A stretch of 30,898 bases of DNA from Verrucomicrobiota bacterium (lineage in GTDB: Bacteria; Verrucomicrobiota; Verrucomicrobiia; Chthoniobacterales; UBA10450): assembly GCA_003219115.1 (NCBI GenBank), contig QHPN01000101.1:1-30898 (forward strand), written 5' to 3'. The translations under genes were made by a program, and so were the position numbers. The notes under the pieces are model-generated. The model ran no database searches, was not told where the DNA came from, and worked only from the letters and a program-made list of their open reading frames with translations. This document shows positions 8,679 to 27,327 of the stretch, piece after piece. The stretch's first letter is position 1. Each line of letters opens with the position of its first letter.

Positions 8679-8697
8679 GGAATTATTGCGCGCTCGA

Positions 8698-9776: not shown

Positions 9777-9805
9777 GTTAAAGTGGTTAAGACGTTAAAT
9801 GTTCA
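9777..9805. repeat. Short GTTAA-unit array (8-9 bp period)
   Basis: GTTAA at 9777, 9786 and 9794 and GTTCA at 9801. Same unit as 13415-13492. Confidence 0.45.
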
Positions 9806-9826
9806 GATCGGCGCATGCGCGCTGAT

Positions 9827-9998
9827 CCGGGTAGCGCACGCGTCTCGCGTGTTGGTTTTCGCGTCTCGCGAAAACAATCTTCCCTATCAACCCTATTTTT
9901 TTCCCGCGACTGCGAGCGGAACGAAAAGTCCGCGATGACGAGACGTCATCGGTCCGAGCCGGACTGGCGTTAACGCGCGAGACGCACGCGCTACCCGG
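9827..9998. repeat. GTAG-tagged four-hairpin REPIN-like element, copy B (with 18-nt insert)
   Basis: 30 bp identical to copy A at 9829-9858 and 26 bp identical at 9926-9951. Extra gtccgagccggactggcg at 9952-9969. Confidence 0.95.
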
Positions 9999-10084
9999 AG
10001 GATTGTCCGCGCGCTCTCACGTTGGGAAAGAGAAAACAAATTCTTTGACCGCCAATCGACAATTAGCTTCAGAATAAAAACGCG

Positions 10085-10190
10085 TGTCATCCCGGGTCGC
10101 GAAGACGACGAGGGACCTCGCAATGACGGAGTAGCCGACCGATCCAAGTTGCGTCACGAATACCCATAGGTGAGATCCCTCGGGATGACA
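10085..10190. repeat. TGTCAT-family palindromic doublet, copy 3
   Basis: tgtcatcccg/cgggatgaca terminal IR. The left unit tgtcatcccgggtcgcgaagacgacgagggacctc is nearly identical to 1186-1220. The right unit lacks the internal hairpin. Confidence 0.85.
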
Positions 10191-10251
10191 GACAAACTGC
10201 GTGCGCACGACATTAATAGCCATCGCTATGTCCGGCTTACGTTGAATCGCA

Positions 10252-10671
10252 TCAGGACGCAATCCTCTTGGTCAACACCAGTTCCGTCCCGCGCTGGCGT
10301 AAAATATAGTCAACCTGATCAAAGGCGTTGCGGATCATCATCAGGCCGAGCCCGCCCGGCCGGACAACTTTATTGCGTCGGCGCTGCAGCGCTTCCGCCG
10401 CCGGCTGCATTCCATAATCACGCAGCCGCATTCGCACACAATCCTGCCGATGCTCGAGAGAAAGTGCGATGAGCTGGTCGTCGCGCAGCTCGTAGGCGTG
10501 CCGGATAATATTGGTGCACGCTTCATCAACACCGAGCACCATCAAGGTGCGATCGCGCTCGGGGATCGGCAGGTTATCTAAAAATTTTCTCACGAAACTG
10601 CGCATCAGAGAGAGATTCCCAGGATGACTGGAAAACTCGAGATTGCGCTTTTTCATTCCGACCGCAGTCAT
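10252..10671 (-). CDS. RsbW/SpoIIAB-like anti-sigma factor (HATPase_c fold)
   Basis: LMVLGVDEACTNIIRHAY (N box), LRDYG (G1) and GGLGLMMI (G2). Start placed at 10671 (alternative 10656) rather than the ORF-track 10779. Confidence 0.85.
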   Translation of the reverse strand: MTAVGMKKRNLEFSSHPGNLSLMRSFVRKFLDNLPIPERDRTLMVLGVDEACTNIIRHAYELRDDQLIALSLEHRQDCVRMRLRDYGMQPAAEALQRRRNKVVRPGGLGLMMIRNAFDQVDYILRQRGTELVLTKRIAS

Positions 10672-10679
10672 GCTGGCGA

Positions 10680-10688
10680 AGGTTATCA
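10680..10688 (-). promoter_or_regulatory. Extended -10 element, probably leaderless anti-sigma gene
   Basis: Minus strand TGaTAACCT, 8 nt before the ATG at 10671. Confidence 0.4.
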
Positions 10689-10821
10689 TCGCTTCAAGTG
10701 TCGGATGACAGAATAATTCATGCCGGACATTGAGATTTCTGGGTAGCGGCGGAGGCTCCGGAGCGAAAAAAACGCGCATACCCGATTGGACACAATTACA
10801 AACCGCGCTTCAATTTCCCGC

Positions 10822-11524
10822 ATGTCGAAAAGTTTTGCCGCGCTCTTCCTACTTTCTGCGTCCGCTGTTTTCGCGCAAACCAATGCCACTGCCTACGATG
10901 CGCTTCGCACCGTCGGCAATAAGCTGAATCGTGACTACGTTAATCGCGTAGTTTCGGTCACCGGACTCGACGGCAACCCCCAACCGTCGACCTGGAGAAT
11001 TCTGATTGATGATCGAAACGCCCACGGGATTCGCGAAGTCGAGGTGAAAGACGGGAGTGTTACTGCCAATCGAATGTCCGATCGTAATGTCGTCGGAACA
11101 GCGCAAGGCGCGACGATTAATCCGGCGCATTTGAATCTGGACTCGAGCGGCGCGTATGAGGTGGCGAGCCGCACCGCCGACTCTTCGCACGTGCCTTTCG
11201 CGTACGTCTCTTCGCACGAACGCACGCGGTGATGGCACCTGGATTGTCACTTTACAAAACCAACATCACCGCCCCGTCGGCACAATTTACATTGGCGCAA
11301 ACAAGGGAACAGTGACGCGCACCGAGGGCATGTTTGCTGGCGCCCCGATGGACGCGGTGGTCGAAGATCATCGCGAGGGAAATGTCGAGTACGAAGAGCG
11401 GAGTAGCGACAATCCGATCATGCGCAGTGTCCGGCACACGTTTTACCGGGCGCGCGAACAGGCCCTCGAAACGTTCAAACGCGTGCGTCACAATTTTGCC
11501 GATTTTATCCGCGGCAACGACTAA
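10822..11524 (+). pseudogene. Secreted hypothetical protein split by a frameshift near 11210
   Basis: Signal peptide MSKSFAALFLLSASAVFA. Frame 1 ends ...PFAYVS and protein-like sequence continues in another frame as LRTNARGDGTWIVTLQ to the stop at 11524. The joined length of 703 nt is not a multiple of 3. Confidence 0.6.
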
Positions 11525-11526
11525 CC

Positions 11527-12460
11527 GTGGCGGAGAATTCACGCGAACAAATCTGGCCTGCGCTCGATTATTCGGAGTGGCGGGAGACATGCGTGACATT
11601 GCAGTTGTGGACGCAGATCATCGGTAAGATCAGGCTGGCTCTCGGGCCCTGGATCAACCATTCGTGGGGTGTTACTTTGTATGTGACGGCGCGCGGGTTG
11701 ACCACGTCACTCATTCCCTATGGTTCACGCGCATTTGAAATCGAGTTTGATTTCATCCGGCACGAATTACGTATTATCACGGCAGAGGGCGATGAGCGTG
11801 TGATCATGCTGCAACCGCAGAGTGTCGCGAATTTTTATCGTCAGGTAATGGACAACCTTGCAGATCGGAATGAAGCCGAACGAAACGCTGGAAGCGATCC
11901 CGTTCGATCGCGATGAGAAACACGCGGCTTACGATCCGGAATATGCCAATCGATTCTGGCGCGTGCTTTTGCAAGCCGATCGGGTTTTCAAGGAATTTCG
12001 TTCGCGTTTCTGCGGCAAATGCAGTCCGGTGCATTTTTTCTGGGGCAGTTTCGATCTGGCAGTGACACGTTTCTCCGGGCGACCGGCGCCGGCGCATCCG
12101 GGCGGCATTCCGCATTTACCCGATGCGATCACGCGCGAAGCCTATTCGCAGGAGGTGAGCAGTCTCGGGTTCTGGCCGGGCAACGATCAAATCTCGACGG
12201 CGCTCTTTTATTCCTACGCCTATCCTTCGCCTGATGGTTTCGCGGAGGCGAAGGTGAAACCGGCCGGTGCATATTTTCATTCGCAACTGCGCGAGTTTGT
12301 CCTCCCTTATGACGAAGTGCGCCGCGCGGAATCACCCGACAAGGCGATCCTAGAATTTGCGCAGAGCACTTATGACGCAGCCTCCACCCTGGCAAAGTGG
12401 GACCGCGCCGCCTTGGAGGAAGCCAAACCTTCCTTGCATTCGAGTGCTCGCTCACCGTAA
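11527..12460 (+). pseudogene. DUF5996 family protein split by a frameshift near 11859
   Basis: N half WPALDYSEW..TLQLWTQIIGKIRL..WINHSWGVTLYVTARGLTT and C half PVHFFWGSFDLAVTRFSGR..GFWPG..FYSYAYP lie in different frames. Joined length 934 nt. Confidence 0.75.
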
Positions 12461-12469
12461 TTATCAAAC

Positions 12470-13405
12470 ATGATTGGTGTGGATGGGGCGACCGCGGAGA
12501 AGGGCGCCTGGCGGGATGTTCCGCAAGGTTGGCGACAACTCTACGGCGATTTCAACAAACTCGGAGTCAGCGTAGAGTGGCACGATTTTCAAACACGGCG
12601 GTCCCTGGACTGGGGCCGCAGTTTTCACCCGCAAAGCATCGAGTTCTGTTTGAACCTCACCGGCCGTGGCGAGGTGCGAACGTCGCGCGCACGCAGTGAT
12701 TTTGTGCCGGGGACGTCTGGTTATTATGCCATGACCGATGATCCGTTTAGGGCGACCCGCGAAGCGAACGATCATCATCAATTCGTAACCTTGGAATTTT
12801 CGCGGGCGCATCTGCAAAAGCAGCTCGCGCAGAATGTCAGCGACCTCGGCGCCGCGATGCGCGAATCAATTTTTGAGAACGGTGTTCACATTTCTACTCC
12901 GCGTCCGATGACGTCAGAACAGCGCAAGGTTGTGGCTTCGCTGACCGAGCCGCCGGTCGCGAAGGCTGCTCAAATCTTATGGTATCAAAGCAAGGCGCTC
13001 GAGCTGATGGCGCATTTCCTTTTCGAACCGAAGGACCCGGAATTTTTTTGCATGCGCCAGAAACGGGTCGCGCGTGATCGGGTGGAGCGGACCAAGGAAT
13101 TACTCGCTCGCGATTTGGCGAACCCGCCGACGCTGGAGATGCTCGGTCAGGAAGTTGGGTGTAGTCCCTTTTATTTAAGCCGGATTTTTTCGCGCGAAAC
13201 TGGTCTCACCATCCCGCAATATCTCCGCAATATCCGGATGGAACGCGCCGCCGAGCTTTTGCGAAGCGGCCGGTATAACGTCACTGAAGCCGCGATCGAA
13301 GTTGGCTACTCCAGCCTGAGTCATTTTAGCAAAGCGTTCTGCGAAACGATCGGTTGCTGTCCTGTGCTTTATCCGGCGGCGAAGAACGTGATTCTCGATC
13401 GCTGA
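12470..13405 (+). CDS. AraC family transcriptional regulator
   Basis: 311 aa with a C-terminal double HTH: PTLEMLGQEVGCSPFYLSRIF...RMERAAELL...VTEAAIEVGYSSLSHFSKAF. Confidence 0.92.
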   Translation: MIGVDGATAEKGAWRDVPQGWRQLYGDFNKLGVSVEWHDFQTRRSLDWGRSFHPQSIEFCLNLTGRGEVRTSRARSDFVPGTSGYYAMTDDPFRATREANDHHQFVTLEFSRAHLQKQLAQNVSDLGAAMRESIFENGVHISTPRPMTSEQRKVVASLTEPPVAKAAQILWYQSKALELMAHFLFEPKDPEFFCMRQKRVARDRVERTKELLARDLANPPTLEMLGQEVGCSPFYLSRIFSRETGLTIPQYLRNIRMERAAELLRSGRYNVTEAAIEVGYSSLSHFSKAFCETIGCCPVLYPAAKNVILDR

Positions 13406-13414
13406 CGCGATCAC

Positions 13415-13492
13415 GTTAAATTGTTAAACCGTTAAAAAGTTAAAACGTGATTGTGAACCGTTTTAACATTGTAACCTTTTTAACGTTTTAAC
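13415..13492. repeat. Inverted pair of tandem octamer arrays: (GTTAAAnn)x4 then five (nnnTTAAC)-like units
   Basis: GTTAAA at 13415, 13423, 13431 and 13439 (8-bp period). Inverted units end in AAC at 13458, 13467, 13475, 13484 and 13492. Confidence 0.8.
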
Positions 13493-13500
13493 CCTTCCTG

Positions 13501-15024
13501 ATGAAAGTCATCCGCGCCCTTATTTCCGTTTCCGACAAGACTGGCGTTGCCGACTTCGCCCGCGCTCTCGAAAAACAGGGTGTCGATATTATTTCTACCG
13601 GCGGAACGGCGGAACTCTTGCGTAAGAAAAAAATCCCTGTGCGCGAGATTTCCAGTTTCACGGCTTTCCCTGAGGTGTTGGAAGGACGGGTGAAAACTTT
13701 GCACCCGCGTGTGCACGGCGGCTTGCTCTACAAGCGAGGCAACCCGAAACATGAAAAGGAGGCTCGCGACCAGGGCTTCGAGCCGATCGATCTTGTGGTC
13801 GTTAACCTTTACCCATTTGAACAAACGATCGCTAAACCGGATGTGGCGTTGGCTGAAGCGATCGAGAATATCGACATCGGTGGCCCGTCGATGATCCGCA
13901 GTGCCGCCAAAAATTACGAGAGCGTTACCGTTGTTGTCGATCCAACCGATTACGCTCTCGTGCTCGAAACGATGCGCGATAATGAAGGGGAGACGACGCT
14001 GAAACTTCGGGAGCGTCTTGCGATCAAAGCATTTATTAAAACTTCCGCCTACGATCGCGCGATCGGTACATTTCTGAACCAGGAACAAGCAACTGATGCG
14101 TCGTTTTCACTGATGATGCCGCTCGTTACTCATCTGCGTTACGGCGAGAATCCGCATCAAAAAGCCGCGCTCTACGGCGACTTCGAGAAGCATTTTGAAA
14201 AACTCCACGGCAAGGAATTGTCGTTCAACAACATTCTCGACATCAGCGCGGCTACCAGCCTGATTAGCGACTTTGACGAAGCGACAGTTGCGATTTTGAA
14301 ACACACGAATCCCTGTGGCGTCGGGAGCGATCCCGATCTGCGCGAAGCGTGGGAGAAAGCGTTCGCGACTGACAAACAGGCGCCCTTTGGCGGGATCATC
14401 GTCTGCAATCGCGAAATCGACGAATCGTTGGCCAAAGCCATCAGCGAAATTTTCAGTGAAGTCATTATTGCACCGGAATTTTCCGGAGAGGCGCGCACGA
14501 TTTTGCAAAAGAAAAAGAATCTGCGGCTGATTCGGCTGCTTGATCCGGCCACCGAACTCTTGCCGAAAAAGGATATTCGTTCCGTCTGCGGCGGTTTACT
14601 CGTGCAGGACGCGGATGTTGGCATTGAAGAAGCCGAACGCGTCGTCTCAAAACGTCAGCCGACGGAGAGCGAACTCAACGCGATGCGATTTGGTTGGCGT
14701 GTAGTCAAGCATGTGAAATCAAATGCCATCGTTTACGCTGGTCCAGATCGCACTCTGGCGATCGGCGCAGGACAAATGTCGCGCGTCGATTCTTCACGGA
14801 TCGCAATCTGGAAAGCGCAGGAAGCGGGGCTTTCCCTCAAGGGCAGCGCCCTCGCCAGTGACGCATTTTTTCCATTTCCGGATGGGCTTCTCGCCGCGGC
14901 CGATGCCGGTGCCAGCTGTGCGATTCAGCCGGGCGGCTCGGTGCGTGACGAAGAAGTAATCGCCGCCGCCGATGAGCGCGAGATGGCGATGATCTTTACC
15001 GGCGTCCGTCATTTTCGACACTGA
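13501..15024 (+). CDS. purH: Bifunctional AICAR transformylase / IMP cyclohydrolase
   Basis: 507 aa with [68 protein letters not shown] and TGVRHFRH. Confidence 0.98.
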
Positions 15025-15028
15025 AACA

Positions 15029-15232
15029 ATGAGTCCACGCGAAGCGATAGAGTTTCAGATTCAGGCTTACCGTCAAATGACGGGGGAGGAGCGACTCGCG
15101 ATTGCATTGCGCATGCACGATCTGTCATGTGACGTCGCGCGGGAAGGAATTCGCCGGCAATACCCTGGCGCTTCTGAGGCCCAGGTAAATGAGTTGCTTC
15201 GTGCGCGTCTCCAGCTTGCCGTTCGCTCGTGA
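15029..15232 (+). CDS. Small helical putative antitoxin (MenA1/Rv0078B-like)
   Basis: 67 aa. ERLAIALRMHDLSCDVAREGIRRQYPGASEAQV resembles the RLALDM...RMRLGRERPNA pattern of MenA1 as I recall it. GTGA overlap with the next gene. Confidence 0.65.
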   Translation: MSPREAIEFQIQAYRQMTGEERLAIALRMHDLSCDVAREGIRRQYPGASEAQVNELLRARLQLAVRS

Positions 15233-15798
15233 ACGAACGCGAGTTGCTGGTCGACTGTTTGGAGCGGCTAAACAAGCTGGCTTTCCCGTATTACCTGACT
15301 GGCTCGATGGCGGGTAACTACTGGGGGATTCCGCGGACAACTCACGACATCGATTTCGTAATCGCGCTAGTTGCCGCCAACGTAGACAGAATTGTGGCGG
15401 CATTTTCGGACGTCTTTCACATTGACGAAAGGGCGGTGCGAGCGGCCTTCGATCCGCCACATCAGTTCAACGCCATCGATACGCGTTCTTCATTGAAAAT
15501 CGATTTTTGGCTGGCCCAACAAACGCCGTTCGAAAATTCAATGTTCGAGCGTCGAATGCACACGACGCTTTTTGGATCTGAGGTGTGGCTTGCCTCGCCC
15601 GAGGACGTCATACTGCACAAACTTTACTGGAATAAGATCACGCCCTCAGAACGCCAGCTTGGCGACGCGGCTGGAATCGTAGCCGTGCAGGGCGAACACC
15701 TTGACCGCACGTATCTTCTGCGTTGGAGCGATTCTCTGGGTGTTACAGATGACATAACCCGCTTATTGCGCGGGGAAATTCGGCCGAAGCAGAGCTGA
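15229..15798 (+). CDS. Nucleotidyltransferase-fold putative toxin (MenT1/AbiEii-like)
   Basis: 189 aa with YYLTGSMA...PRTTHDIDFV (G-S and DxD), KIDFW, ASPEDVILHKL and RQLGDA. Confidence 0.8.
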   Translation: MNERELLVDCLERLNKLAFPYYLTGSMAGNYWGIPRTTHDIDFVIALVAANVDRIVAAFSDVFHIDERAVRAAFDPPHQFNAIDTRSSLKIDFWLAQQTPFENSMFERRMHTTLFGSEVWLASPEDVILHKLYWNKITPSERQLGDAAGIVAVQGEHLDRTYLLRWSDSLGVTDDITRLLRGEIRPKQS

Positions 15799-15836
15799 AC
15801 CGTGCATGATCCTTTCCGCCGGGATTCTCCGCGGCG

Positions 15837-16949
15837 CTATGGTTTAAATGTAATCGGCACGACGAGGCTCCACTCGCGCCCGGCTTCCGAGCGCCACTCG
15901 TGAAGTGCGGAGACGGCTGCTTGATCGAGGGCGGAATTGCCGGTCGAGCGCATGGTTTGAACCGCGACGGCCCGCCCATTGGCATCGAACGAAACGCGGA
16001 AGCTGCCCGATGGCTGTCCGGCACCCCGCGGTTGTTTTGCTTCTGATGGATAACGCGGAGCGGGCGCGTAAACCAGCTTTGATCCTTTTAGCGGGATTTT
16101 CGATGGTGTCGCCGTTCGAGCCGGCGTTGCCGATGATGCCAGTGTCGTTACATGTGATGCAGCCGTCAGATTCTGCCAGCTCGCGGTCACGTTCGATGAA
16201 ACCTGCGACAGAAGTGTTGCAGCCGCGGCGGCCGATCTGATCGTGCACGAATTGCTTCCGGCGCGAAACGTCGCCACGCCGATGAGCTCGCCTCGTTGAT
16301 TGATAACCGGTGCGCCCGCGATCGTTTTCGATAATGCCGGCGTAACATCGAACCATTCTCCCGCTTCGTCGGTAAAGCGGCCGCTTATTTTCTCCTCCAA
16401 CAGGACCGGGTTTGTCCGTTCGATCGGACTGAGAACGATTGCGACTTCGTCGCCAGCATCCGGCAGTGCGCTCGCGCTCGACACAAGAAACGGTACCGGA
16501 TGGGTCGCGTCCGCTTTCAAAAGAACCAAACTTTGTGACGCAGTTTGGGTGAGGGCGCCCGAGACATTGTAAATTGCCCCGTCTGCGACTTTTGCCACGG
16601 CATTAGCTCCGCCTGTGATGACGCTGCGATCCGCAATGAATTTTCCGTCACCGGAAACGAAGAAGCCGTGACCGTTTGCACTCAAATGTCCTGTTTCATC
16701 GAAGACTGAAACAATGACAACGGCAGCGCGAATCCGTTGTGCCACTTCGATAAAAACGCTTGTCGGAGTCTGTGACCGCTGTGGCGTAGGTGTTGCGCTC
16801 GATTCAACCGGCGCCGACGTGGCCGACGTGGCCGGCGTTGACGCGGTAGAAAGGGGAGAAGGTTCAGGGGCGCGAACAATCGAAGTTTTGCGCTCACACG
16901 AGACAAGCATGCACAGAACGAGAATGAAACAAACCCCGCCGGCTCTCAT
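15837..16949 (-). CDS. Predicted lipoprotein: triad-less trypsin-like (S1) domain fused to a TonB C-terminal domain
   Basis: Start at 16949, MRAGGVCFILVLCMLVS|C (lipobox LVSC). S1 pattern GHGFFVSGDGKF...LVLLK...AGAPVINQRGELIGVA. TonB_C pattern PRYPSEA..G..RVSFDANG...STGNSALDQAAVSALHEWR..VPITF. Confidence 0.8.
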   Translation of the reverse strand: MRAGGVCFILVLCMLVSCERKTSIVRAPEPSPLSTASTPATSATSAPVESSATPTPQRSQTPTSVFIEVAQRIRAAVVIVSVFDETGHLSANGHGFFVSGDGKFIADRSVITGGANAVAKVADGAIYNVSGALTQTASQSLVLLKADATHPVPFLVSSASALPDAGDEVAIVLSPIERTNPVLLEEKISGRFTDEAGEWFDVTPALSKTIAGAPVINQRGELIGVATFRAGSNSCTIRSAAAAATLLSQVSSNVTASWQNLTAASHVTTLASSATPARTATPSKIPLKGSKLVYAPAPRYPSEAKQPRGAGQPSGSFRVSFDANGRAVAVQTMRSTGNSALDQAAVSALHEWRSEAGREWSLVVPITFKP

Positions 16950-17033
16950 TGTCTTAACGACATCCCGTGCCGGTCGCCGACTCAAGGATAAAATCAGCGA
17001 TAGTGGTTGTGGCGCGCTTGGAGGGCGGGATCT

Positions 17034-17058
17034 GGCAGGTGAAGCGCCTGCCCTACAA
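17034..17058 (-). repeat. Single GTAG-tagged REP half
   Basis: Minus strand ttGTAGggcaggcgcttcacctgcc, forming a ggcagg/cctgcc hairpin. Confidence 0.45.
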
Positions 17059-17112
17059 TCGATCGTTCGCGCGACGCAAAACTTGTAGAGCAACCTCCGC
17101 TTGGCGAATTAT

Positions 17113-17640
17113 CTATCGTGGCGCCAAGCTCTTCTTTCGCATCGATGCCGCTTGAACAAGCACCCCGAAAAGCACGAGCGCACTGAACAACAAAATCTCG
17201 CCGGTCGGCGGCAAAGAGATCGCGCTCGTGATCAGATGGGCGCCAATCAGTGACGAGACAAAGATCAGCGCCCAATCAAACAACATGAGGAGCAGCACTG
17301 TTCCGATCAATCCTCCAATAATAAAAATCAGCCAATAATGCGATGCATACTGCGCGACGAACATTGCCACCAGACCGACAGCGAACCGGCCGCCAGCGAT
17401 AAAACCGACCAGGCCAATCGCCAATTTCTGCAGAAAAAGTGCGAGTAACGCGCCGATGAACCCAAGCAAGATTGCGAAGGTTAATTGTAGCAACGGTGTC
17501 GGGTCACTCACGATGTGCGACGTCAGGGTTACGCCTGCAGCAAACCCAATCGCTGCCACGCAAAGCCAGAAGAGTTTGCGACCAAGCAACAGGACGACTA
17601 CACCGATCGCAGCGCCCAGGATGGGGACGGAAAGATTCAC
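17113..17640 (-). CDS. DUF4203 (TM7S3/TM198-like) multi-pass membrane protein
   Basis: 175 aa, almost entirely hydrophobic and Gly-rich, with LLLGRKLFWL..AAIGFAAG and SSLIGAHLI patterns. GTG start. Confidence 0.7.
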   Translation of the reverse strand: MNLSVPILGAAIGVVVLLLGRKLFWLCVAAIGFAAGVTLTSHIVSDPTPLLQLTFAILLGFIGALLALFLQKLAIGLVGFIAGGRFAVGLVAMFVAQYASHYWLIFIIGGLIGTVLLLMLFDWALIFVSSLIGAHLITSAISLPPTGEILLFSALVLFGVLVQAASMRKKSLAPR

Positions 17641-17663
17641 GAATTGGCTTGGCGTATCACTTT

Positions 17664-17753
17664 TGTCATGTCGAGCGCCAGTCGAGACATCTCTTAATTT
17701 ATTTTCTTGCCGGCCGTTAAGTTAGAGATTCGTCGACTCTGCTCGGAACAACA
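17664..17753. repeat. TGTCAT-family palindromic doublet, copy 4
   Basis: Left tgtcatgtcgagcgccagtcgagacatctc and degenerate right agagattcgtcgactctgctcggaacaaca. Confidence 0.75.
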
Positions 17754-17817
17754 AATGGTAGAGAAGCCTCAAGATAGAGCGTGCCGCCAGTGGTCAGTCT
17801 ATCTATCATATGATCTT

Positions 17818-19480: not shown

Positions 19481-19489
19481 CCATTTCTT

Positions 19490-19551
19490 TGTAGCGGCGG
19501 TCTCCGACCGTCGCAACCAGATGGATTCGGCGGTCAGAGACCGCCGCTACA
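19490..19551. repeat. GTAG-tagged REP doublet
   Basis: 21-bp IR with 1 mismatch: tgtagcggcggtctccgaccg / cggtcagagaccgccgctaca. Confidence 0.9.
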
Positions 19552-19585
19552 GCTCGGAGCGGAGTGCCCAGATCGATGGCCCAAG

Positions 19586-21733
19586 TTATTTGTTTCCCGT
19601 CATCAACGCAGTGGAGGTGTTCCCTTCGCTGATCCCGATCTTTTTCAAAAAAGGCTGCACCGATTGTTTGCGCGCGAGAAACTTCTCAATCGATTCGTTG
19701 ACATCGCGAGAATCGCCCATTGCGTAAATTTCATTTCGCAATCGCATTCCTGCCTGCTTATCGTAATAACCCTCAGGCGCGCTTTCAAAGACCGTCGCCA
19801 TGTCGGCGGCGATCGCATCGGCCCAGGCATAACCGTAGTAGCCAGCATCGTAGCCATTGAGATGTCCGAAGTAGGAGACGAAGGTCGTGCTCGGGTCGAT
19901 CGGGAGAAACACTTTTTCTAAAATCGGGTTCGAGATTCCAACGCAATCGTAGGATGCATTCTCCGGATGCGGCCCGTGCAATGCCAGATCAAGCGAGGCG
20001 AAGGCAAATTGGCGGCGATAAAACACGCCCGCAGTCGCGAGCTTGGCATCTTTCATTTTTTGGATGGTCTCCGCCGGAATTTTTTTCGACGGGTCACGGT
20101 AATCTGCCGCGAAAGAATCAAGCACGCGTTTATCCCAGACCCAGTTTTGCAGCATTTGCGAGGGAGCTTCGACAAAATCCGTGGGCACATGTGTGCCGGC
20201 GAAACGGGCGTATTTTGCGTGCGTCGTAATCGTATGCAGGACGTGACCGAACTCGTGAAACAGGATCTCGACCTCGTTATGACTCAACAGTGACGGCTTG
20301 TCTGAAGTGGCAGGCGGGAAATTGCAAAGCAATGTCACCGTTGGTCGCTGATATTTTCCATCCGGCAGAAGTTTACCGCCGATAATTTCGAACTCGGCGA
20401 AGTGATTAAACTTTCCGTCGCGTGGGAACATGTCGAGGTAAAACAAACCCAGGGGTTCGCCGGTCGCGGCATCGCTCACCGCCCAGAGCTGGAGCTGGTC
20501 GATCCATTTATAAGGCGCGGCGATTTGTTCGAATTTCAACCCGAAAATCCCCTGGTAAATGGCAAACATTCCATCAAGTACTTTCTGGAACGGGAAAAAA
20601 TTCCGGAGCGCTTCAGCATCGACCGCAAATTTCTGCTTCTTGAGTTGGTTCTGATAGTAGCGCCAGTCCCAAGTGTTGATTCTGGGCGTAGCAAAAGCAC
20701 TGTTACCGGATGGCTGAAGGTCCAGCTGCTTCATTTTCTGGAGCTCAGCGAGTTCGGCCGCGAACTTGGGCTCGATTCCGGCCACAAGATCATCGATGTA
20801 CTTCTGCGCGGCCGCGCCATTCTTAGCCATGCGTGGTTCGGTTTGAAAATCGTCCCACGATTTATACCCGAGCCGGAGCGCGATCTTATTTCGCAGGTCC
20901 AACATTTTGTTTAGCAGCGGCACGTTCTTCTCCTTCGCGAGCGAATCGTGAGCAATGTAGAGCTTCTTTCGTGTCGCTTCATTCTTGGCGTTTTCTTCCA
21001 CTGCGATGAACTGCCAGGTCACATTCGCGAGCACGGTGTAGGCATCATCACCGGTTTTGATCCCTGGCTTGGTGAAAAAATCCTCCGGCATCCCTTCCAA
21101 CTCGGCTTTTGTGAAAACGACCGGCTGTTTCGTGTTGGCAATGTTCGTTCCAAAATCCGTGCCCAGCTTGGCCAGTTGTTTGCGCAACTGCTCAACCTCT
21201 TTGCGCTTCGGCGGCGGCAGAGCCAGGCCGGCTCGGCGATAATCTCGCATCGTTTCATCGAGCAACTTTTTGTCCTCACCCGCCAGCTGCGGTTTGGTCT
21301 CGGCGAAGGCTTTGATCGATTTGTATACGTTTTCCCGATAATCGATGCCCACAAACCATTCGTTCAATGTCTTGACGGCGTTTTCTGCGGCCGCGCGCAT
21401 GTTCGGGTCGGTATGCGCTTCCTTAATAATAGTAGCCTTGTTCGCAATGTTATTGGCTTCGTAACCGAGGGTGTCGAGAGCGACGAGAGTATTTTGAAAT
21501 GTCACTTTTTTCGGGTCGAGCTTGCCGATGGCATCGAGCGCGGCGTTCCCTTTTTTGATTGCATCCCTGGCCGCAACCTCAATTGCGGCGGGCGTTTGCT
21601 CCCAGTCTGGGATGGTGAGTTGTGCATTCGCCTTAGCGGCGGCGTCGCGATAGCTGTCGATGGATTTTAGGTCCTCAGCGTGCGCGACAACCGTGGTCCC
21701 AAGAATAAACAGCAGAACGTAACGGACGTTCAT
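19586..21733 (-). CDS. Peptidase M3A (thimet oligopeptidase-like) with signal peptide
   Basis: FHEFGHVLH zinc motif, DFVEAPSQMLQNW and YYGYAWA. Start moved to 21733 (MNVRYVLLFILGTTVVAHA) because the ORF-track extension overlaps MarC. Confidence 0.93.
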   Translation of the reverse strand: MNVRYVLLFILGTTVVAHAEDLKSIDSYRDAAAKANAQLTIPDWEQTPAAIEVAARDAIKKGNAALDAIGKLDPKKVTFQNTLVALDTLGYEANNIANKATIIKEAHTDPNMRAAAENAVKTLNEWFVGIDYRENVYKSIKAFAETKPQLAGEDKKLLDETMRDYRRAGLALPPPKRKEVEQLRKQLAKLGTDFGTNIANTKQPVVFTKAELEGMPEDFFTKPGIKTGDDAYTVLANVTWQFIAVEENAKNEATRKKLYIAHDSLAKEKNVPLLNKMLDLRNKIALRLGYKSWDDFQTEPRMAKNGAAAQKYIDDLVAGIEPKFAAELAELQKMKQLDLQPSGNSAFATPRINTWDWRYYQNQLKKQKFAVDAEALRNFFPFQKVLDGMFAIYQGIFGLKFEQIAAPYKWIDQLQLWAVSDAATGEPLGLFYLDMFPRDGKFNHFAEFEIIGGKLLPDGKYQRPTVTLLCNFPPATSDKPSLLSHNEVEILFHEFGHVLHTITTHAKYARFAGTHVPTDFVEAPSQMLQNWVWDKRVLDSFAADYRDPSKKIPAETIQKMKDAKLATAGVFYRRQFAFASLDLALHGPHPENASYDCVGISNPILEKVFLPIDPSTTFVSYFGHLNGYDAGYYGYAWADAIAADMATVFESAPEGYYDKQAGMRLRNEIYAMGDSRDVNESIEKFLARKQSVQPFLKKIGISEGNTSTALMTGNK

Positions 21734-21784
21734 AGACGTTGAATCGGGTGACGGAATTGTGTAGAAGCGCGACGGTAACGCCAA

Positions 21785-22366
21785 ATGCGCGATCTCGCTG
21801 AGAAATTTTTCGTCGCCTTCATCCCGCTTTTTGTCGCGATTGACCCAATCGGCTTGGTCGCGCTTTTTATGGCCCTTGGCCCCGGCGCGTCGCCGCAGCA
21901 ACGCAAGCATCAGGCGTTTCTCGGAATTTTTACCGGTCTCGGCGTTGCCACCGGCTTTATTTTTCTCGGCAAAATCATTTTTTCGGCACTCGGAATCACG
22001 GTGGCCGATTTTCAAATCGCGGGTGGCCTCATCCTTCTGATTCTGGCCACGCGCGAATTGGTCACATTCGGCCCGCCCGATCGCGGCGGCGCGGACGAAT
22101 TCGGGATCGTGCCGCTGGGAATGCCGTTGATCGCAGGGCCGGCATTGCTAACCGCTCTTCTCATTCTGATCGACACGGTTGGGATTGTGTTCACGCTCAT
22201 CTCGCTGCTGGTGAATCTCGGCATTGTCGCCGTCGCGCTTTGCAATGCCGACCGTTTCAGCCGCTGGATGGGCAAGCAAGGTTTGCGCGGCGTCTCCAAA
22301 ATCATCGCGCTCTTGTTGGCGGCGATCGCAGTAAGTTTGATCCGCCGCGGCTGGCAGATGCGTTAG
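21785..22366 (+). CDS. MarC family inner-membrane protein
   Basis: 193 aa with FIPLFVAIDPIG, FQIAGGLILL, IVPLGMPLIAGP and KIIALLLAAIAV. Confidence 0.9.
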   Translation: MRDLAEKFFVAFIPLFVAIDPIGLVALFMALGPGASPQQRKHQAFLGIFTGLGVATGFIFLGKIIFSALGITVADFQIAGGLILLILATRELVTFGPPDRGGADEFGIVPLGMPLIAGPALLTALLILIDTVGIVFTLISLLVNLGIVAVALCNADRFSRWMGKQGLRGVSKIIALLLAAIAVSLIRRGWQMR

Positions 22367-22386
22367 CCGGTTTCAATGTCATCTAA

Positions 22387-22519
22387 CAGACTATTGAAAA
22401 CCACAACTGATGTCCGCGAAACAGATCGGAACATAGGGCTGTGCCTTGTGCGCCCAGCGGACGTGTTGTCCGCCGCTGCAAAGTCTATGTTCCGAATGGC
22501 CCGGTGCTTCAACAGTCTG
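22387..22519. mobile_element. 133-bp MITE-like nested inverted-repeat element
   Basis: Terminal IR cagactattgaa / ttcaacagtctg (11 of 12), inner perfect 11-bp IR tcggaacatag (22426-22436) / ctatgttccga (22485-22495), and a gcggac/gtccgc hairpin. No target-site duplication seen. Confidence 0.6.
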
Positions 22520-22573
22520 CCCGGGCTCAGACCGATTCATGAGTGCCAACGGAGCAATAACTGCCCCACACCT

Positions 22574-23050
22574 ATGATGACTGGTGCATTAGTGAACGAA
22601 GTAGAACCGGCTCCGGAAACTGTTGCTCGTCTTGTTCGAGCTGTATTGCTCAAATCGTTGCTGGAAATACTGATTCTTTGCCTTGTTCTGGGCATAGCTG
22701 GATTCAAGTATTTCAATCCGACGATACGTGGAGAGATTATGCAAGCAGACGCTGTGAGCGTGCGTGGTTGGGTTACCAATCCGCTGGCGCCACACGATCC
22801 AATTCAACTCGAGCTTGTGATCGACGGCCGCCCCACGGCAATCATGACCGCACTAGAAGTGCAGCCTGGACACGCGGTAAGTGCCCTACGTCGAGGTAGC
22901 GAGCATCCGTTCGAGTTTTCATTTCAACGTCTGCCAGCTGGAACGCATTCAGTTCAGGTTTATGCCGTCCAAACCACACCGGGTCGGACGCTGAGTTTGG
23001 TTCCAATTACACGCCGCTCAGAAACTTTCACGCTGAGTCCGGGTAGATGA
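22574..23050 (+). CDS. Single-TM protein with a probable extracytoplasmic Ig-like domain
   Basis: TM segment LLEILILCLVLGIAGF, then the beta-strand pattern VRGW..P...LELVIDG...HPFEF...LPAGTHSVQVYAV. Start placed downstream of the MITE. ATGA overlap with the next gene. Confidence 0.6.
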   Translation: MMTGALVNEVEPAPETVARLVRAVLLKSLLEILILCLVLGIAGFKYFNPTIRGEIMQADAVSVRGWVTNPLAPHDPIQLELVIDGRPTAIMTALEVQPGHAVSALRRGSEHPFEFSFQRLPAGTHSVQVYAVQTTPGRTLSLVPITRRSETFTLSPGR

Positions 23051-23724
23051 ATGCGACTGAGAATAGTGGCTCGTCTGACACCTTATCGTGGCAAGCGATC
23101 AACCTTGCCGAAATAATTTCGGTCGTTCTTTCCATTTTGCTAGTAGAATGGGCGCTCGCGCCTTTCGCGGTGTTACCATGGCTGCTTGGTGCCCCGCCGC
23201 TCCTTGCGTTTGCGCTGATGCTGTATTCGCATCGTTGCCGTGGCGAAACAGCTCAAATGCTGGGATTCGGCGGACGCTACTTTGATCGAGCGCTTCTTCT
23301 GCTTGCCGGACCAACGTTACTGGCAATCGCCGCGTTAATATTCGTCAGCCATGCAACGCATTCGCTTCATCTGCCGGATCGATTCTGGGCCAGGCTGAGC
23401 CTGCTACCTGGTTGGGCGCTTTTACAACAGTACGTGCTGCTGGGTTTTACCTACCGGCGGCTGCGCCAATTCCTTCACGCTAATCAAACCATCATCATAA
23501 CAGCTGGACTGTTCGCCCTCGTTCACGCTCCCAATTATCCGCTGATGATTCTTACTTTCCTTGGCGGATTGATCTGGAGCTTTGTCTACGAACGCGCACC
23601 GAATTTGTTTGCGGCCTCGATATCGCACGTGCTGCTGAGTGCAACGGTTCTCATCGCGATCCCGGAATGGATCCTGCCAAGTATGACGGTCGGCTACCGT
23701 TACCTTCTATATCACAATTTCTGA
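23047..23724 (+). CDS. CPBP (CAAX protease / Abi) family intramembrane protein with EE replaced by QQ
   Basis: 225 aa, multi-TM, with WALLQQYVLLGFTYRR (EExxxR position), LFALVH (FxxxH) and NLFAASISH. Confidence 0.8.
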   Translation: MNATENSGSSDTLSWQAINLAEIISVVLSILLVEWALAPFAVLPWLLGAPPLLAFALMLYSHRCRGETAQMLGFGGRYFDRALLLLAGPTLLAIAALIFVSHATHSLHLPDRFWARLSLLPGWALLQQYVLLGFTYRRLRQFLHANQTIIITAGLFALVHAPNYPLMILTFLGGLIWSFVYERAPNLFAASISHVLLSATVLIAIPEWILPSMTVGYRYLLYHNF

Positions 23725-23734
23725 TTCGTTCTGA

Positions 23735-23769
23735 TTCGGTAGGGGTGGCCGTTCGGGCCACCTACCGAA
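23735..23769. repeat. GTAG-containing hairpin (REP-like or terminator)
   Basis: ttcggtagg-gg-tggcc-gttcg-ggcca-cctaccgaa. Confidence 0.6.
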
Positions 23770-23791
23770 AGTGTCGATTTGTGTCTCTAGG

Positions 23792-23819
23792 TTGACACTC
23801 GGTATGGTGCCGGTACCGT
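23792..23819 (+). promoter_or_regulatory. Sigma70-type promoter for hpnH-shc, near-leaderless
   Basis: TTGACA-16 bp-TACCGT, 9 nt before the ATG at 23829. No SD. Confidence 0.65.
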
Positions 23820-23828
23820 ACGGCTTCT

Positions 23829-25166
23829 ATGAGGTTTCCTTTGGCGCTCACCACCAAGATCGCTGCGTACATCGTCGGCCATAAGATCCGTGGCACGAAG
23901 AAGTTCGCTACCGTCTTGCAGCTTGAGCCATTGCACACCTGTAACCTGACTTGCACCGGTTGCGGTCGAATCCGCGAATATTCCACCTCGCTCAAAGACA
24001 TGATGCCGCTGGAGGATTGCCTCGGGGCGGCCCGGGAATGCAATGCGCCCATGGTCTCGATCTGTGGCGGCGAACCCTTGATTTACCCCCACATCGAAGC
24101 GCTTATTAACGGTTTGCTCGATCAGGGCCGGATCGTATACGTCTGTACCAACGCCATGTTCATGCGCAAGAAGATGCGCGAATGGCTGACAAAAGAATTG
24201 CGAAGTGCGGGTCCGAGCCGGACTGGCGCTAGCGGATCGCGGAGTGAACTCGAACTCAAGATCGATGATTTGGTCCGCGATGGTTTAGTTTCTGAGAAAG
24301 ACGCGGCCGCAATCCGCAATCCGCAATCCGCAATCCGCGATCACGTGATTGCGCCCAGCAGGTGGATGTATTGGAACGTGCATCTCGACGGGCTCGAGCG
24401 GACCCACGATCTGATCGTCGAGCGCGAAGGTGTCTTCAAGGAGTGCATTCTTGCCATTAAAATGGCGAAAAGCCTTGGCTATCAGGTCGCAACAAACACT
24501 ACCGTCTATAAAGAGACGGACATGGATGAGGTTGAGCAGATGCTCGATTTTTTAGCCGATCTCGGAGTTGACGGCCACACCATTACTCCGGGCTACGATT
24601 ATGACGCGGCCAAGAAAGACATGGTGAAGCGGCTCAATCTGCAGCCGGAGAATTTCTTTCTCACCCGCAAAGCGACGGTCGAGAAATTCGTGCGCATGGA
24701 AGAATGGATGAATCGCTACACGTTTTTTGGGACGCCCGTCTACTTTGAGTTTCTCGCCGGTCATCGCGATCTGACCTGCTCGGCCTGGGCCATCCCAACT
24801 CGGAATTTGATGGGCTGGAAAGCGCCGTGTTATTTCATGACCGATACCGTCGGCACGCAGGGTCATTACAAGACTTACGCCGAGATGCTGGAGAAGGTGG
24901 ATTGGGACAAGTACGGCGTCGTTAATGGTGTGGCGCGCGATCCGCGCTGTGAGAATTGCATGACCCACTGCGGTTATGAACCAACCGCCAGCCTCGGCCT
25001 TCAGGCAAAACGCGGAGACACCTGGAAGACGCTAAGGTTTAATTTTGGACCCAGACCTAAGAGCCGTGGTCGCGGCAACGAGATCGCAGTATATAACGGC
25101 GTCAGCTCGGGCAATGGGCACCTGACCGGGAAGCAGCCCGCCGCCGCCGAAGCGAAAGTTTCCTGA
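23829..25166 (+). CDS. hpnH: Hopanoid-associated radical SAM protein (adenosylhopane synthase)
   Basis: LQLEPLHTCNLTCTGCGRI (CxxxCxxC), SICGGEPLIYP, VHLDG, YFEFLAG, CSAWAIP and DPRCENCMTHCGYEPTA. Directly upstream of shc. Confidence 0.93.
   Translation: MRFPLALTTKIAAYIVGHKIRGTKKFATVLQLEPLHTCNLTCTGCGRIREYSTSLKDMMPLEDCLGAARECNAPMVSICGGEPLIYPHIEALINGLLDQGRIVYVCTNAMFMRKKMREWLTKELRSAGPSRTGASGSRSELELKIDDLVRDGLVSEKDAAAIRNPQSAIRDHVIAPSRWMYWNVHLDGLERTHDLIVEREGVFKECILAIKMAKSLGYQVATNTTVYKETDMDEVEQMLDFLADLGVDGHTITPGYDYDAAKKDMVKRLNLQPENFFLTRKATVEKFVRMEEWMNRYTFFGTPVYFEFLAGHRDLTCSAWAIPTRNLMGWKAPCYFMTDTVGTQGHYKTYAEMLEKVDWDKYGVVNGVARDPRCENCMTHCGYEPTASLGLQAKRGDTWKTLRFNFGPRPKSRGRGNEIAVYNGVSSGNGHLTGKQPAAAEAKVS
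24210..24228 (+). repeat. Micro-insert hairpin inside the hpnH coding sequence
   Basis: ggtccgagccggactggcg is identical to 9951-9969 and is translated here as GPSRTGA. Confidence 0.75.
24311..24338 (+). repeat. (AATCCGC)x4 tandem heptamer inside hpnH
   Basis: Perfect units at 24311, 24318, 24325 and 24332, encoding IRNPQSAIR. Confidence 0.92.
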
Positions 25167-25174
25167 TCACTGTC

Positions 25175-27172
25175 ATGGCGACGAATTCGCCTAACCTGAT
25201 TTCTTTGCCAAGCGCGCGGCTCCAGCCCGGCGTCGCCTACGCGGCTAACGATTCGCAGATCGCTGCGGCGATGGCGCAAGCCCAGGCAAATCTCTTGCGG
25301 CAGCAGAAACCGGACGGTCATTGGTGCGGAGAGCTGTTTGTCGATAGCACTCTTTGCTCGGATTACGTGTTGTATCTGCATTGGCTGGGGGAGGTCGACC
25401 GCGAGATCCAGGACCGCTGCACTCAACACATTTTGCGTCGCCAATTGTCCGACGGTGGCTGGAATATCTATTATGGCGGGCCCAGCGAAATTAACGCTTC
25501 GGTGAAAGCTTATTTCGCGCTCAAGCTCGCAGGGTATTCAGCCGATCTGCCATTTATGCGCGAAGCTCGCGCCAATATTTTGCGCATGGGCGGTATCCCG
25601 CGCGTCAACACTTTCAGCAAGCTTTATCTCGCACTCATGGGCCAGTTCCCGTGGAAATATCTGCCCACCATTCCGGTAGAAATGGTCCTGCTGCCGGAGT
25701 GGGCGCCGTTTCACATCTACAAGATGTCGTCCTGGAGTCGGGCCATGCTCATGCCTCTCGCCATCATCAATCATTTCAAGCCGACGCGCGAGTTGTCCGG
25801 CGAAAAACAACTCCACGAGTTGTATCCGCTCGGGACCGAGCACAAGGATTTCCGCCTCCCGCGCGATGAGCGGGTATTTACCTGGCGAAATTTGTTCCTG
25901 CGGGGGGACGATGCGCTCAAGATGCTGCATCGAATTCCCTGGAAACCGTTGCGTCGGATCGCGCTGGAGGAAGCGGAACGGTGGATGATCGAGCGGATCG
26001 GTGAGGGAAGCGACGGTCTGGCCGCGGTTTATCCAGCAATGCTTAATGCGTTGATTGCATTGCACGCCCTCGGCTACCCAAACAGCCATCCCGCTCTCAT
26101 TAAAGCGAAGAAGGATTTCGAAGGATTGTTCGTCAACGATCCGGAAGATTTTCGAATTCAACCGTGTCTTTCGCCGGTTTGGGATACTGCGATCAACGTC
26201 ATCGCGTTGGCGGAGAGTGGGCTGCCGCCCGAACACCTGGCGTTGCAAAAGGCCGCTGCCTGGTTATCGAGCAAGGAAGTTCGGATCCGGGGCGATTGGA
26301 CGAAAAACAATTCCCACCCCGAAGCGAGTGGTTGGGCCTTCGAGTACAATAACGTTTACTATCCCGATACCGACGATACCGCGATGGTGCTGATGGCGCT
26401 GCGTCTGGTTCGGCCTGAAGACGACAAGCAGTACGAAAAGGTATTTGAACGCGCTCTCGCCTGGCAGTTGAGTTTCCAATGTCGCGACGGCGGCTGGGGC
26501 GCATTCGACAAGGGCGTGATCGATGGCTGGCTGGAAAACATGCCCTTCGCCGATCACAACGCCATTCTCGATCCCACTTGCAGCGACCTGACCGCGCGCA
26601 CGCTCGAGCTTTTTGGTTACATCGATTTCGATCGCTTCGATCCTAGCGTGAAGGAGGCGCTACGCTATTTAATCAGGACCCAGGAAGACGACGGCTCCTG
26701 GTACGGGCGCTGGGGTGTGAACTACATTTACGGCACATGGCAGGTGTTGCGCGGGCTGCGCGCGATCGGACAGGACATGACTCAGGATTGGATTCTGCGC
26801 GGACGCGATTGGCTCGAGAGTTGTCAGAACGACGACGGCGGCTGGGGTGAAACTTGCGCGACCTACGAAGATCCCTCGGCGAAAGGAAAAGGCGACAGCA
26901 CAGCTTCACAGACGGCATGGGCAATCATGGGGATTTGCGCTTGTGGCGATCTCAATCGACCGAGCGTGCAACGCGGGTTGCGTTATCTCCTGTCGACCCA
27001 GCAACCCGATGGTTCCTGGCACGAACCGCAAATCACCGGCACCGGTTTTCCGGGCGTGTTCTACTTGAAGTACGACATGTACCGGCAAAATTTCCCGCTC
27101 CTCGCGCTGGCCACCTACGTAAATTACAAGCGCAGCTTCGGCCATCCGCGGAGTTTCTTCCGCTGCGGTTGA
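25175..27172 (+). CDS. shc: Squalene-hopene cyclase
   Basis: 665 aa with the YPDTDDTAMV catalytic DxDD motif, QW repeats (QKPDGHW, QLSDGGW, QCRDGGW, QEDDGSW, QNDDGGW, QQPDGSW) and GRWGVNYIYGTW. Confidence 0.97.
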   Translation: MATNSPNLISLPSARLQPGVAYAANDSQIAAAMAQAQANLLRQQKPDGHWCGELFVDSTLCSDYVLYLHWLGEVDREIQDRCTQHILRRQLSDGGWNIYYGGPSEINASVKAYFALKLAGYSADLPFMREARANILRMGGIPRVNTFSKLYLALMGQFPWKYLPTIPVEMVLLPEWAPFHIYKMSSWSRAMLMPLAIINHFKPTRELSGEKQLHELYPLGTEHKDFRLPRDERVFTWRNLFLRGDDALKMLHRIPWKPLRRIALEEAERWMIERIGEGSDGLAAVYPAMLNALIALHALGYPNSHPALIKAKKDFEGLFVNDPEDFRIQPCLSPVWDTAINVIALAESGLPPEHLALQKAAAWLSSKEVRIRGDWTKNNSHPEASGWAFEYNNVYYPDTDDTAMVLMALRLVRPEDDKQYEKVFERALAWQLSFQCRDGGWGAFDKGVIDGWLENMPFADHNAILDPTCSDLTARTLELFGYIDFDRFDPSVKEALRYLIRTQEDDGSWYGRWGVNYIYGTWQVLRGLRAIGQDMTQDWILRGRDWLESCQNDDGGWGETCATYEDPSAKGKGDSTASQTAWAIMGICACGDLNRPSVQRGLRYLLSTQQPDGSWHEPQITGTGFPGVFYLKYDMYRQNFPLLALATYVNYKRSFGHPRSFFRCG

Positions 27173-27178
27173 TTCTTC

Positions 27179-27254
27179 GTAGCACAGGCATCTTGTCCGC
27201 TACCGGACGGACTCGCCGTGGCGAGCCTGTGGGGCCAACGGGCATCTTGCCTGT
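27179..27254. repeat. GTAG-tagged repeat interrupted by a 30-nt double-hairpin insert
   Basis: gtagcacaggcatcttg|tccgctaccggacggactcgccgtggcgag|cctgt. The uninterrupted unit ggcatcttgcctgt follows at 27241-27254. Confidence 0.8.
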
Positions 27255-27258
27255 TTAG

Positions 27259-27327
27259 ATGGAGGGCGGAGCTCTGCGACGCCGGGCTTGCCGGTCCGGC
27301 CCGGGCTCGCGGAGCTCGCCCCTCCAT
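27259..27327. repeat. GGAG-tagged REP doublet
   Basis: Imperfect IR atggagggcggagctctgcga / tcgcggagctcgcccctccat. Confidence 0.75.

Follow-up and report, generated by a model that had tools for sequence, protein, structure and literature searches.

Among known systems, the repeat described here appears closest to the small dispersed repeats (SDRs) of the cyanobacterial Nostocaceae and to the repetitive extragenic palindromes (REPs), and in its behavior it would be the more SDR-like. SDR1–8, which Elhai et al. reportedly described in 2008 (Genome Res 18:1484), are said to be dispersed repeats of 21–27 nt that were judged mobile, with no known mobilizer, and that are reportedly found nested in other repeats and within genes too. 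Rickettsia palindromic elements (RPEs) measure roughly 100–150 bp. The repeat in question is an 18-nt sequence, GTCCGAGCCGGACTGGCG (the 18-mer, or element A), carried in a 30,898-nt stretch of DNA (the window) that corresponds to contig C132 of genome G000 (GCA_003219115.1, QHPN01000101.1; Chthoniobacterales, UBA10450), an assembly of 2.67 Mb in 276 contigs that is 76% complete. From comparisons of filled and empty sites we propose, with a probability of roughly 0.8, that the 18-mer forms the core of a mobile DNA element that is very small and non-autonomous.

REPs are palindromes of 20–40 bp with a GTAG or CGTC tag; the CGTC families have stems of 8–9 bp, loops of 4–5 nt and no known transposase, and REPs inside genes and nested in palindromes have been documented, including in the verrucomicrobium Opitutus terrae (PMC3733652). 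A REPIN is an inverted pair of REPs tied to a flanking REP-associated tyrosine transposase (RAYT) (PMC3116915). SDR5 inserts at HIP1, and SDR-like repeats were not found outside Nostocaceae among the HIP1-rich cyanobacteria examined (PMC5861425). RPEs and other protein-coding palindromes are known as in-frame insertions in genes (cited in PMC3733652).

The 18-mer resembles REPs and REPINs in its hairpin with a short conserved unpaired tail, its high copy number, its lineage-specific sequence and its mostly intergenic location with occasional in-frame copies in gene loops, and genuine GTAG REPINs and RAYT genes coexist with it in G000. However, it carries neither a GTAG nor a CGTC tag at either end, and its core of 18 nt (20 with TT), in which the stem measures 5 bp and the loop 3 nt, falls below the 20–40 bp of REPs. 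Unlike REPINs, it occurs as singletons or direct tandems with no inverted pairs as a unit, no RAYT is flanked by it, and its abundance does not co-vary family-wide with Y1 transposases. With SDRs it shares very short, dispersed, near-identical copies, preferred short motifs and a mobility deduced from filled and empty orthologous sites, whereas it belongs to another phylum (Verrucomicrobiota), is presumably unrelated in sequence and has an 18-nt core against 21–27 nt for SDR1–8. As with RPEs, insertions occur in frame in functional-looking genes and survive in loops and linkers, but the elements described here are 18–39 nt long and most copies are intergenic, inside other repeats. Miniature inverted-repeat transposable elements and palindromes derived from IS200/IS605 insertion sequences (IS) are likewise non-autonomous, structured and numerous; the 18-mer, in contrast, lacks terminal inverted repeats of useful length as well as a target-site duplication and a parent IS with matching ends, and compared with IS200/IS605 it shows no strong orientation bias of the lagging-strand type and a target of which only a purine at −1 is fixed, two bases being replaced, with no fixed tetra- or pentanucleotide. 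DNA uptake sequences and uptake signal sequences (DUS/USS) occur about once per kb, arise by substitution and are enriched in the core genome, whereas the 18-mer reaches at most ~1 per 17 kb, forms discrete insertions and is depleted in coding DNA.

Abundance and anatomy of the 18-mer

Matching with up to 3 mismatches, for which the chance expectation in the window is 0.09, returned two exact copies of the 18-mer and no further ones:

9952–9971, plus strand: element A copy 1, an exact match with its core at 9952–9969 and a TT tail at 9970–9971, in the right arm of REPIN copy B
24211–24228, plus strand: element A copy 2, an exact match in frame in hpnH, adding GPSRTG to a surface loop
23829–25166, plus strand: hpnH (adenosyl-hopene transferase; TIGR03470), host gene of copy 2

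The initial annotation had recognized the repeat from the window alone, yet it proved neither confined to the window nor to this genome. G000 holds 50 exact copies, 96 within 1 mismatch, 136 within 2 and 162 within 3, while the control, the reversed pattern, gave 0 matches; exact copies are found across the family. The 18-mer is the most abundant 16-mer family in G000, ahead of the classical GTAG REP.

Element A reads GTCCG-AGC-CGGAC-TGGCG (+TT): a 5-bp stem, a 3-nt loop and a conserved tail, TGGCR. Its consensus is GTCCGAGCCGGACTGGCR, the reverse complement of which begins YGCCAGTCCGG, and compensatory stem variants (GTGC..GCAC) occur among the copies. In a position table of 136 copies, conservation around the core was confined to −1 through +2, the flanks being otherwise unrelated. 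Most copies have G (74%) or A (20%) at −1, core position 18 is G or A, and T occupies +1 in 55% and +2 in 65%. The tail bases GGC are conserved as much as the stem.

Copies are singletons or direct tandems, doubles as well as triples. One tandem in G000 (C157:8956-9041) comprises three 34-nt units, each with an 18-mer, downstream of a gene that encodes a peptidoglycan-binding-like product end, and in another genus three head-to-tail copies follow a 19-nt period (G044:C3:638813-638868).

According to a codon-usage classifier, both flanks were non-coding for 99 of 135 copies (~73%) versus 23% of random genome positions, and 5 of 135 copies versus 33% of random positions lay inside a coding frame, an approximately ten-fold coding depletion. 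The 18-mer is indeed free of stops in all six frames, as had been pointed out; the same holds, however, for 68% of shuffles of its composition and for 41% of 18-mers drawn at random from the genome, and this openness is not significant as a signal.

Filled and empty host repeats indicate repeated insertion

Copy 1 and the commonest target of element A are represented in the window by the following repeats:

9826–9999, plus strand: host REPIN copy B, filled, a GTAG-tagged REP pair
8563–8681, plus strand: host REPIN copy A, its empty paralogue, a GTAG-type REPIN
10085–10119, minus strand: empty copy of host REP H1 (GAGRTCCCTCG..CTCGGGATGACA), the commonest target of element A
1186–1220: second empty H1 copy

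Alignment bore out the claim that REPIN copy B carries exactly 18 nt that copy A lacks at that point, and copy A has CC where copy B has TT after the insert. A 38-nt spacer segment is a second difference of copy B; considered as another element, it was rejected as unique sequence and no repeat.

When the two flanks of each copy were joined and used as a query against G000, 45 copies turned out to have paralogous empty sites that align without a gap. At least 8 unrelated host families are represented among these, and copies are located mid-repeat in several different repeat families. In 25 contexts, comparison of the filled sequence with the consensus of the empty paralogues showed a left flank identical up to −1 and, at +1/+2, CC, CN or AC in the empty state as against TT (or TA) in the filled one. 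Because of this exchange after an identical left flank, 20 nt stand where 2 nt were, with a net gain of 18. The 18-nt insertion originally proposed thus holds as a net length, but not as a plain insertion: the unit is 20 nt, core plus TT, replacing two bases.

The largest host family, H1 (GAGATCCCTCG…CTCGGGATGACA), has ~248 copies, 227 of them empty and 21 filled. TT follows CCCTCG in 1 of 226 empty copies versus 14 of 21 filled ones, and 2 further filled copies have TA; being rare in empty and common in filled H1, TT thus arrives with the element. All 21 filled copies (21/21) carry the element at one position and in one orientation, and they are spread over at least 8 sub-lineages, distinguished by compensatory stem variants, each of which has empty members. 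This spread indicates repeated site-specific insertion, not a single fill followed by amplification. It also makes hitchhiking on REPs, as the initial annotation put it, too passive a description: the element does lie inside REPs, but rather than being carried along it repeatedly targets one REP site on its own. Nor is the 18-mer a fixed part of larger REPs, an objection anticipated at the outset, given the 227 empty versus 21 filled H1 copies and the 45 copies with paralogous empty sites.

We found no hidden target duplication of 1–2 nt, since the base at −1 shows no correlation with that at position 18 (p = 0.44). Insertion sites are poor in C at +1 to +3, and folding of the empty targets placed many of them just 3′ of a small hairpin. 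The H1 loop between CCCTCG and CTCGGGAT is highly variable (cttgcg, ccgtctgcgcgg, acttcg and gtcgccgagacgacc are among the variants), a variety that suggests further micro-hairpin modules exchanged at the 18-mer’s site.

Orthologous sites are filled in some species and empty in others

The in-frame copy in hpnH proved to be an exact match, and the 445-aa product was recognized as HpnH by TIGR03470 (367.7 bits versus a cut-off of 225), the profile match being split around residues 125–174. Orthologues were present in 25 of 31 relatives. The forward 18-mer occurs in G000 and G015 (…AGPSRTG…), whereas G004, G010 and G008 have the reverse 18-mer at the adjacent dinucleotide (…NASPART…) and ten congeners are exactly 18 nt shorter, i.e. 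empty; in genomes beyond the genus, hpnH is shorter still at the insertion point. Filling is independent of flank similarity: G004 (reverse) is similar to G016 (empty), and G008 (reverse) to G005 and G014 (both empty). The gene also contains an (AATCCGC)4 tract (window 24311–24338) encoding …IRNPQSAIR…, which the closest congeners (G015, G004, G010 and G016) retain with no change of frame or length; frameshifted alleles at this tract were found in 0 of 15 orthologues.

In the Lhr helicase, the linker between the DEAD and Helicase_C domains has six extra residues in G000, SEPDWR, encoded by the 18-mer, and G032 and G018 are without them. SEPDWR lies within an in-frame insert of ~66 nt that is wholly missing from 15 congeners. 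Across the orthologues of G000:C243:1814-4537 (loci L158–L187), the linker measures 51 nt in 15 congeners; the remaining linkers have one of three different in-frame inserts (63–78 nt), and in G010 the stretch is 134 nt with a stop, so that the gene appears split.

A proteasome-type AAA ATPase provides the third coding site with empty counterparts. Here G000, G032, G007 and G034 have in common an older copy with 1–2 mismatches (VRAGLA). This surface loop (orthologues of G000:C197:445-2157, loci L188–L216) is a repeat hot spot, and its base state measures 93 nt. A whole GTCATCCCGAGCG…CGAGGGATCC REP or REPIN (…HPERSASEVEGSRD…) occupies it in frame in ten congeners, a GTAG REP, likewise in frame, in five, and the 18-mer in four.

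The prediction that the element adds short peptides to proteins is thus borne out for three verified proteins, each of which gains six residues in a different frame. Because the frames differ, the encoded peptide is unlikely to be under selection, and the loops probably merely tolerate the insert.

Copies within host repeats behave alike. G010 has an orthologous REPIN to that of copy 1 in the same intergenic region, and it is empty (gcgatcg-CC-aacatacg), while G032 and G015 are without this REPIN altogether. The region around it (window 9760–10250) measures 473–492 nt in G000 versus 74–170 nt in G032, G015 and G010, the surplus consisting of repeats (the REPIN, the H1 REP and others). At C191:22509, none of the five congeners compared has a copy; the host REP is present and empty in three of them (ccccacag-gc-aagatgcc), G000 having +18 and TT, and G007 keeps only the tail of the element, a decayed remnant. 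Other C191 sites are shared with just one or two species. Empty-site orthologues, the comparison that the initial annotation had recommended, are therefore available for hpnH, the Lhr linker, the REPIN at 9826–9999 and C191:22509.

Longer relatives of the element

Two longer elements are related to element A, one of which is present in the window:

27195–27225, plus strand: element B copy, GTCCG-CTAC-CGGAC-GGACTCGCCG-TGGCG-AG, a net 30-nt insert (27196–27225) in host REP H2
27179–27254, minus strand: host REP H2 carrying element B, with gggcaagatgcccgttggccccacagg and aagatgcctgtgctac on the two sides of the insert as read on the minus strand
Element C, 39 nt, 5 copies in G000: element A, the loop of which holds a B-like piece of 21 nt

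The 30-nt insert was rightly singled out from the window. It belongs to a family of 12 copies in G000 (0–17 in congeners) and, with the G at 27195, has the GTCCG/CGGAC stem and TGGCG tail of element A plus 10 extra nt. Element B folds as two hairpins (−10.9 kcal/mol, z −2.5). H2 receives element A (at least 12 copies), element B (~6, the window copy included) and element C (1) all at one dinucleotide, with element B oriented opposite to element A, and empty H2 copies exist, including an orthologous one. Each of the net lengths (18, 30 and 39 nt) is divisible by three, a suggestive pattern, though a weak one statistically.

Distribution of the element

The exact 18-mer is almost confined to metagenome-assembled genomes (MAGs) of soil Verrucomicrobiota labelled Chthoniobacterales or Candidatus Udaeobacter, and an artefact is excluded by the many independent projects that produced them. 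Udaeobacter-like bacteria have been described as genome-streamlined and very abundant in soil.

Within 1 mismatch, the 26 genomes of the genus hold 0–214 copies each, with at least 55 in 14 species and at most 30 in 12, and the highest density is ~1 per 17 kb. The family-wide set comprised 151 genomes, with 36 genera sampled, and the 18-mer was found in 121 of the former and 31 of the latter; 12 sister families of the order have 0–1 copies. The unpublished genome G006 contributes single rows to the congener counts and alignments, with no conclusion hanging on it, and G039, G050 and G162, likewise unpublished, enter the family tallies only. The dominant variant (final G or A) differs by lineage, as expected for amplification from master copies. 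A phage origin was considered and rejected, 2.9 million viral contigs having given only 8 single matches.

Search for a mobilizer

As the initial annotation had stated, no mobilizer is apparent in the window: its contig has no match to a Y1 transposase. Its suggestion that a RAYT-like HUH transposase or a reverse transcriptase acts from elsewhere in the genome was examined by co-occurrence, without phylogeny correction and across MAGs that are incomplete, and neither enzyme class is supported.

G000 has 14 Y1_Tnp (HUH) matches. Flanking the genes of the best Y1 class are inverted repeats of their own, CCTGGGGC..GCCCCAGG, and not the 18-mer, one copy of which lies within 1.5 kb at 2 of the 11 loci of this class and none at the other 9; a RAYT flanked by the element was not seen at the Y1 loci examined. 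One full-length RAYT class is common in genera nearly without 18-mers and was not found in several 18-mer-rich genera, and in the 151-genome set its presence showed no association with copy number outside the genus (p = 0.46). Total Y1 matches correlate with copy number within the genus (rho 0.69), but not family-wide (0.15) or outside the genus (0.09). Discordant genomes exist in both directions: some have 46–83 copies with at most one weak Y1 match (77–83 copies with 1 weak match), others 6–9 Y1 matches with 0–1 copies (in one case 9 matches and 1 copy). Only 10 of the 151 genomes have reverse transcriptases, and the high-copy genomes that were checked (G000, G015 and G010) are not among them.

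The few 18-mer pairs within 4 kb of each other bracket no transposase-like gene; only an acyltransferase, MlaD, PIN and a UvrA fragment lie between them. G000 has no longer parent element with 18-mer ends and no split halves. The 18-mer as a footprint or as the joined ends of a larger element was rejected, half-site counts being equal to those of full copies; where a half stands alone, it is either a chance 10-mer or the 39-nt relative. No known RNA family was found in the window.

A replichore orientation bias was weak at best on contigs of 0.3–4 Mb, for which origins and termini were unmapped: pooled adjacent pairs, by our own tally, were in the same orientation 100 times and in different orientations 74 times (p = 0.058), and the orientations are interleaved along the contigs. 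G053 has an excess of one orientation (p = 0.003) together with a local cluster, in which 17 of its 39 copies lie in a 230-kb stretch (C2:1,030,000-1,265,000), 15 of the 17 in one orientation; either local hopping or an island rich in repeats might account for it.

Proposed mechanism and alternatives

The comparisons show that the element enters 3′ of a purine, mostly after CG or AG and often after TCG, and that TT replaces the next two target bases, so that 20 nt take the place of 2, for a net +18 and no target-site duplication. Either orientation is usable at one spot, with a strong preference for particular positions inside other REP and REPIN repeats. In genes, insertions survive only in tolerant loops, where the 3n length adds six residues in any frame. 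Elements B (~30 nt) and C (39 nt), which have the stem and tail of element A, enter at its target sites too. From the retention of an identical 18-mer in 31 of 36 genera we infer that a trans-acting factor conserved across the family recognizes its sequence; the copies themselves probably turn over quickly between species, and the element is presumably selfish or neutral, with no function at the protein level.

Several points weigh against this proposal. No mobilizer was found, and mobility is deduced from comparisons between genomes and repeats. Replacement of 2 nt by 20 matches no well-described transposition chemistry that we could name, and folding the empty sites gave no consistent structural rule common to the targets. 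The hairpin of element A on its own is weak (−4.2 kcal/mol, z −1.2). In H1, pairwise divergence is 0.091 per site for the element and 0.090 for the right arm of the host; with a divergence no lower than that of the host arm, the element need not be the younger of the two. Patchy presence among species could, moreover, partly reflect recombination between lineages instead of repeated insertion.

One alternative is that the 18-mer is a minimal REP moved in trans as single-stranded DNA by one of the RAYT/IS200-type Y1 (HUH) transposases of the genome. Its REP-like hairpin and tail, its life among GTAG-type REPs and REPINs, the 14 Y1_Tnp matches of G000 with the within-genus correlation of 0.69, cleavage points that would both lie 3′ of CG, and the precedent of REPs in genes and within palindromes, Opitutus terrae included (PMC3733652), all fit such a scheme. 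We nevertheless consider it unlikely: the tag is missing, and stem, loop and size fall outside the REP ranges (PMC3733652), the best Y1 genes have flanking repeats of their own, and neither the RAYT class nor the Y1 totals track copy number beyond the genus, as the discordant genomes illustrate. A strong orientation bias along large contigs was not seen, and a peel-and-paste mechanism does not predict the replacement of two bases.

Two further readings dispense with autonomous targeting or with mobility. Conservation of the exact sequence over 31 genera but within one family, the occurrence of both orientations, a tail GGC as conserved as the stem, and a patchy hpnH distribution that ignores flank similarity, as allele exchange would, are compatible with a non-mobile DUS/USS-like or protein-binding signal spread by recombination and selection. 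Such a signal is improbable, because discrete 20-nt insertions into unrelated sequence are impossible by point mutation and biased uptake; a density of at most ~1 per 17 kb, a range of 0–214 copies within one genus, the strong depletion in genes and the tandem copies also speak against it. The 18-mer might instead be a mere passenger, inserted once long ago in each REP family and copied with its host. Position and orientation are indeed identical in all filled copies of a given host family, two GTAG-REP copies have the rare variant T14G in common along with similar flanks, and the element is about as diverged as the H1 right arm. Yet the sub-lineages with filled H1 copies number at least 8 and contain empty ones as well, unique gene sequence is filled where orthologues are empty, orthologous host REPs are empty in sister species and at least 8 unrelated host families are involved, which together make passive carriage highly improbable.

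Returning to the mobile element that we favor, it is conceivable, though we hold this only tentatively and think it rather doubtful, that A, B and C represent a new class of “nano-transposon”. In that case a family-conserved factor, neither a Y1/HUH transposase nor a reverse transcriptase, would exchange a 20-nt cassette for two bases in either orientation and so continually remodel REPs and protein loops in bacteria that rank among the most abundant in soil.

Implications

If the comparisons are read correctly, few DNA sequences with demonstrated mobile-element behavior are as short as the 18-mer, and we have found no earlier example of its kind outside cyanobacteria. How it is recognized, cut or copied, and pasted becomes a mechanistic question, because 18–20 nt are too small for two transposase-binding ends. 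The 20-for-2 swap, the unduplicated target and the acceptance of either orientation by a single site form a concrete signature for testing candidates, and conservation across a family with 0 to >200 copies per genome offers a natural data set for partner-gene association. Together with whole REPs, the 18-mer has repeatedly lengthened loops of housekeeping proteins by in-frame insertion (HpnH, Lhr and the proteasome-type ATPase). For annotation, such repeats extend open frames and thereby affect gene calling, and the micro-insertions may be usable as strain markers.

Additional features

Weak Y1_Tnp-like matches (32–41 bits) occur in G000 in open frames of 729–1337 aa (C151:798-1070, C60:2948-3172, C260:33183-33479 and C138:4168-4440), with similar cases in congeners; they are either real fusions or chance frames.

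The window holds one more repeat that had been linked to the element:

27260–27326, no strand assigned: REP pair with the proposed fourth copy (27294–27311), rejected as a copy

The stretch at 27294–27311 has 4 mismatches to the 18-mer and is mostly host REP arm (CCGGGCTCGCGGAGCTCGCCCCTCCA). True copies of the 18-mer lie just 5′ of the same arm elsewhere in G000, at C201:2932 and C259:2346.

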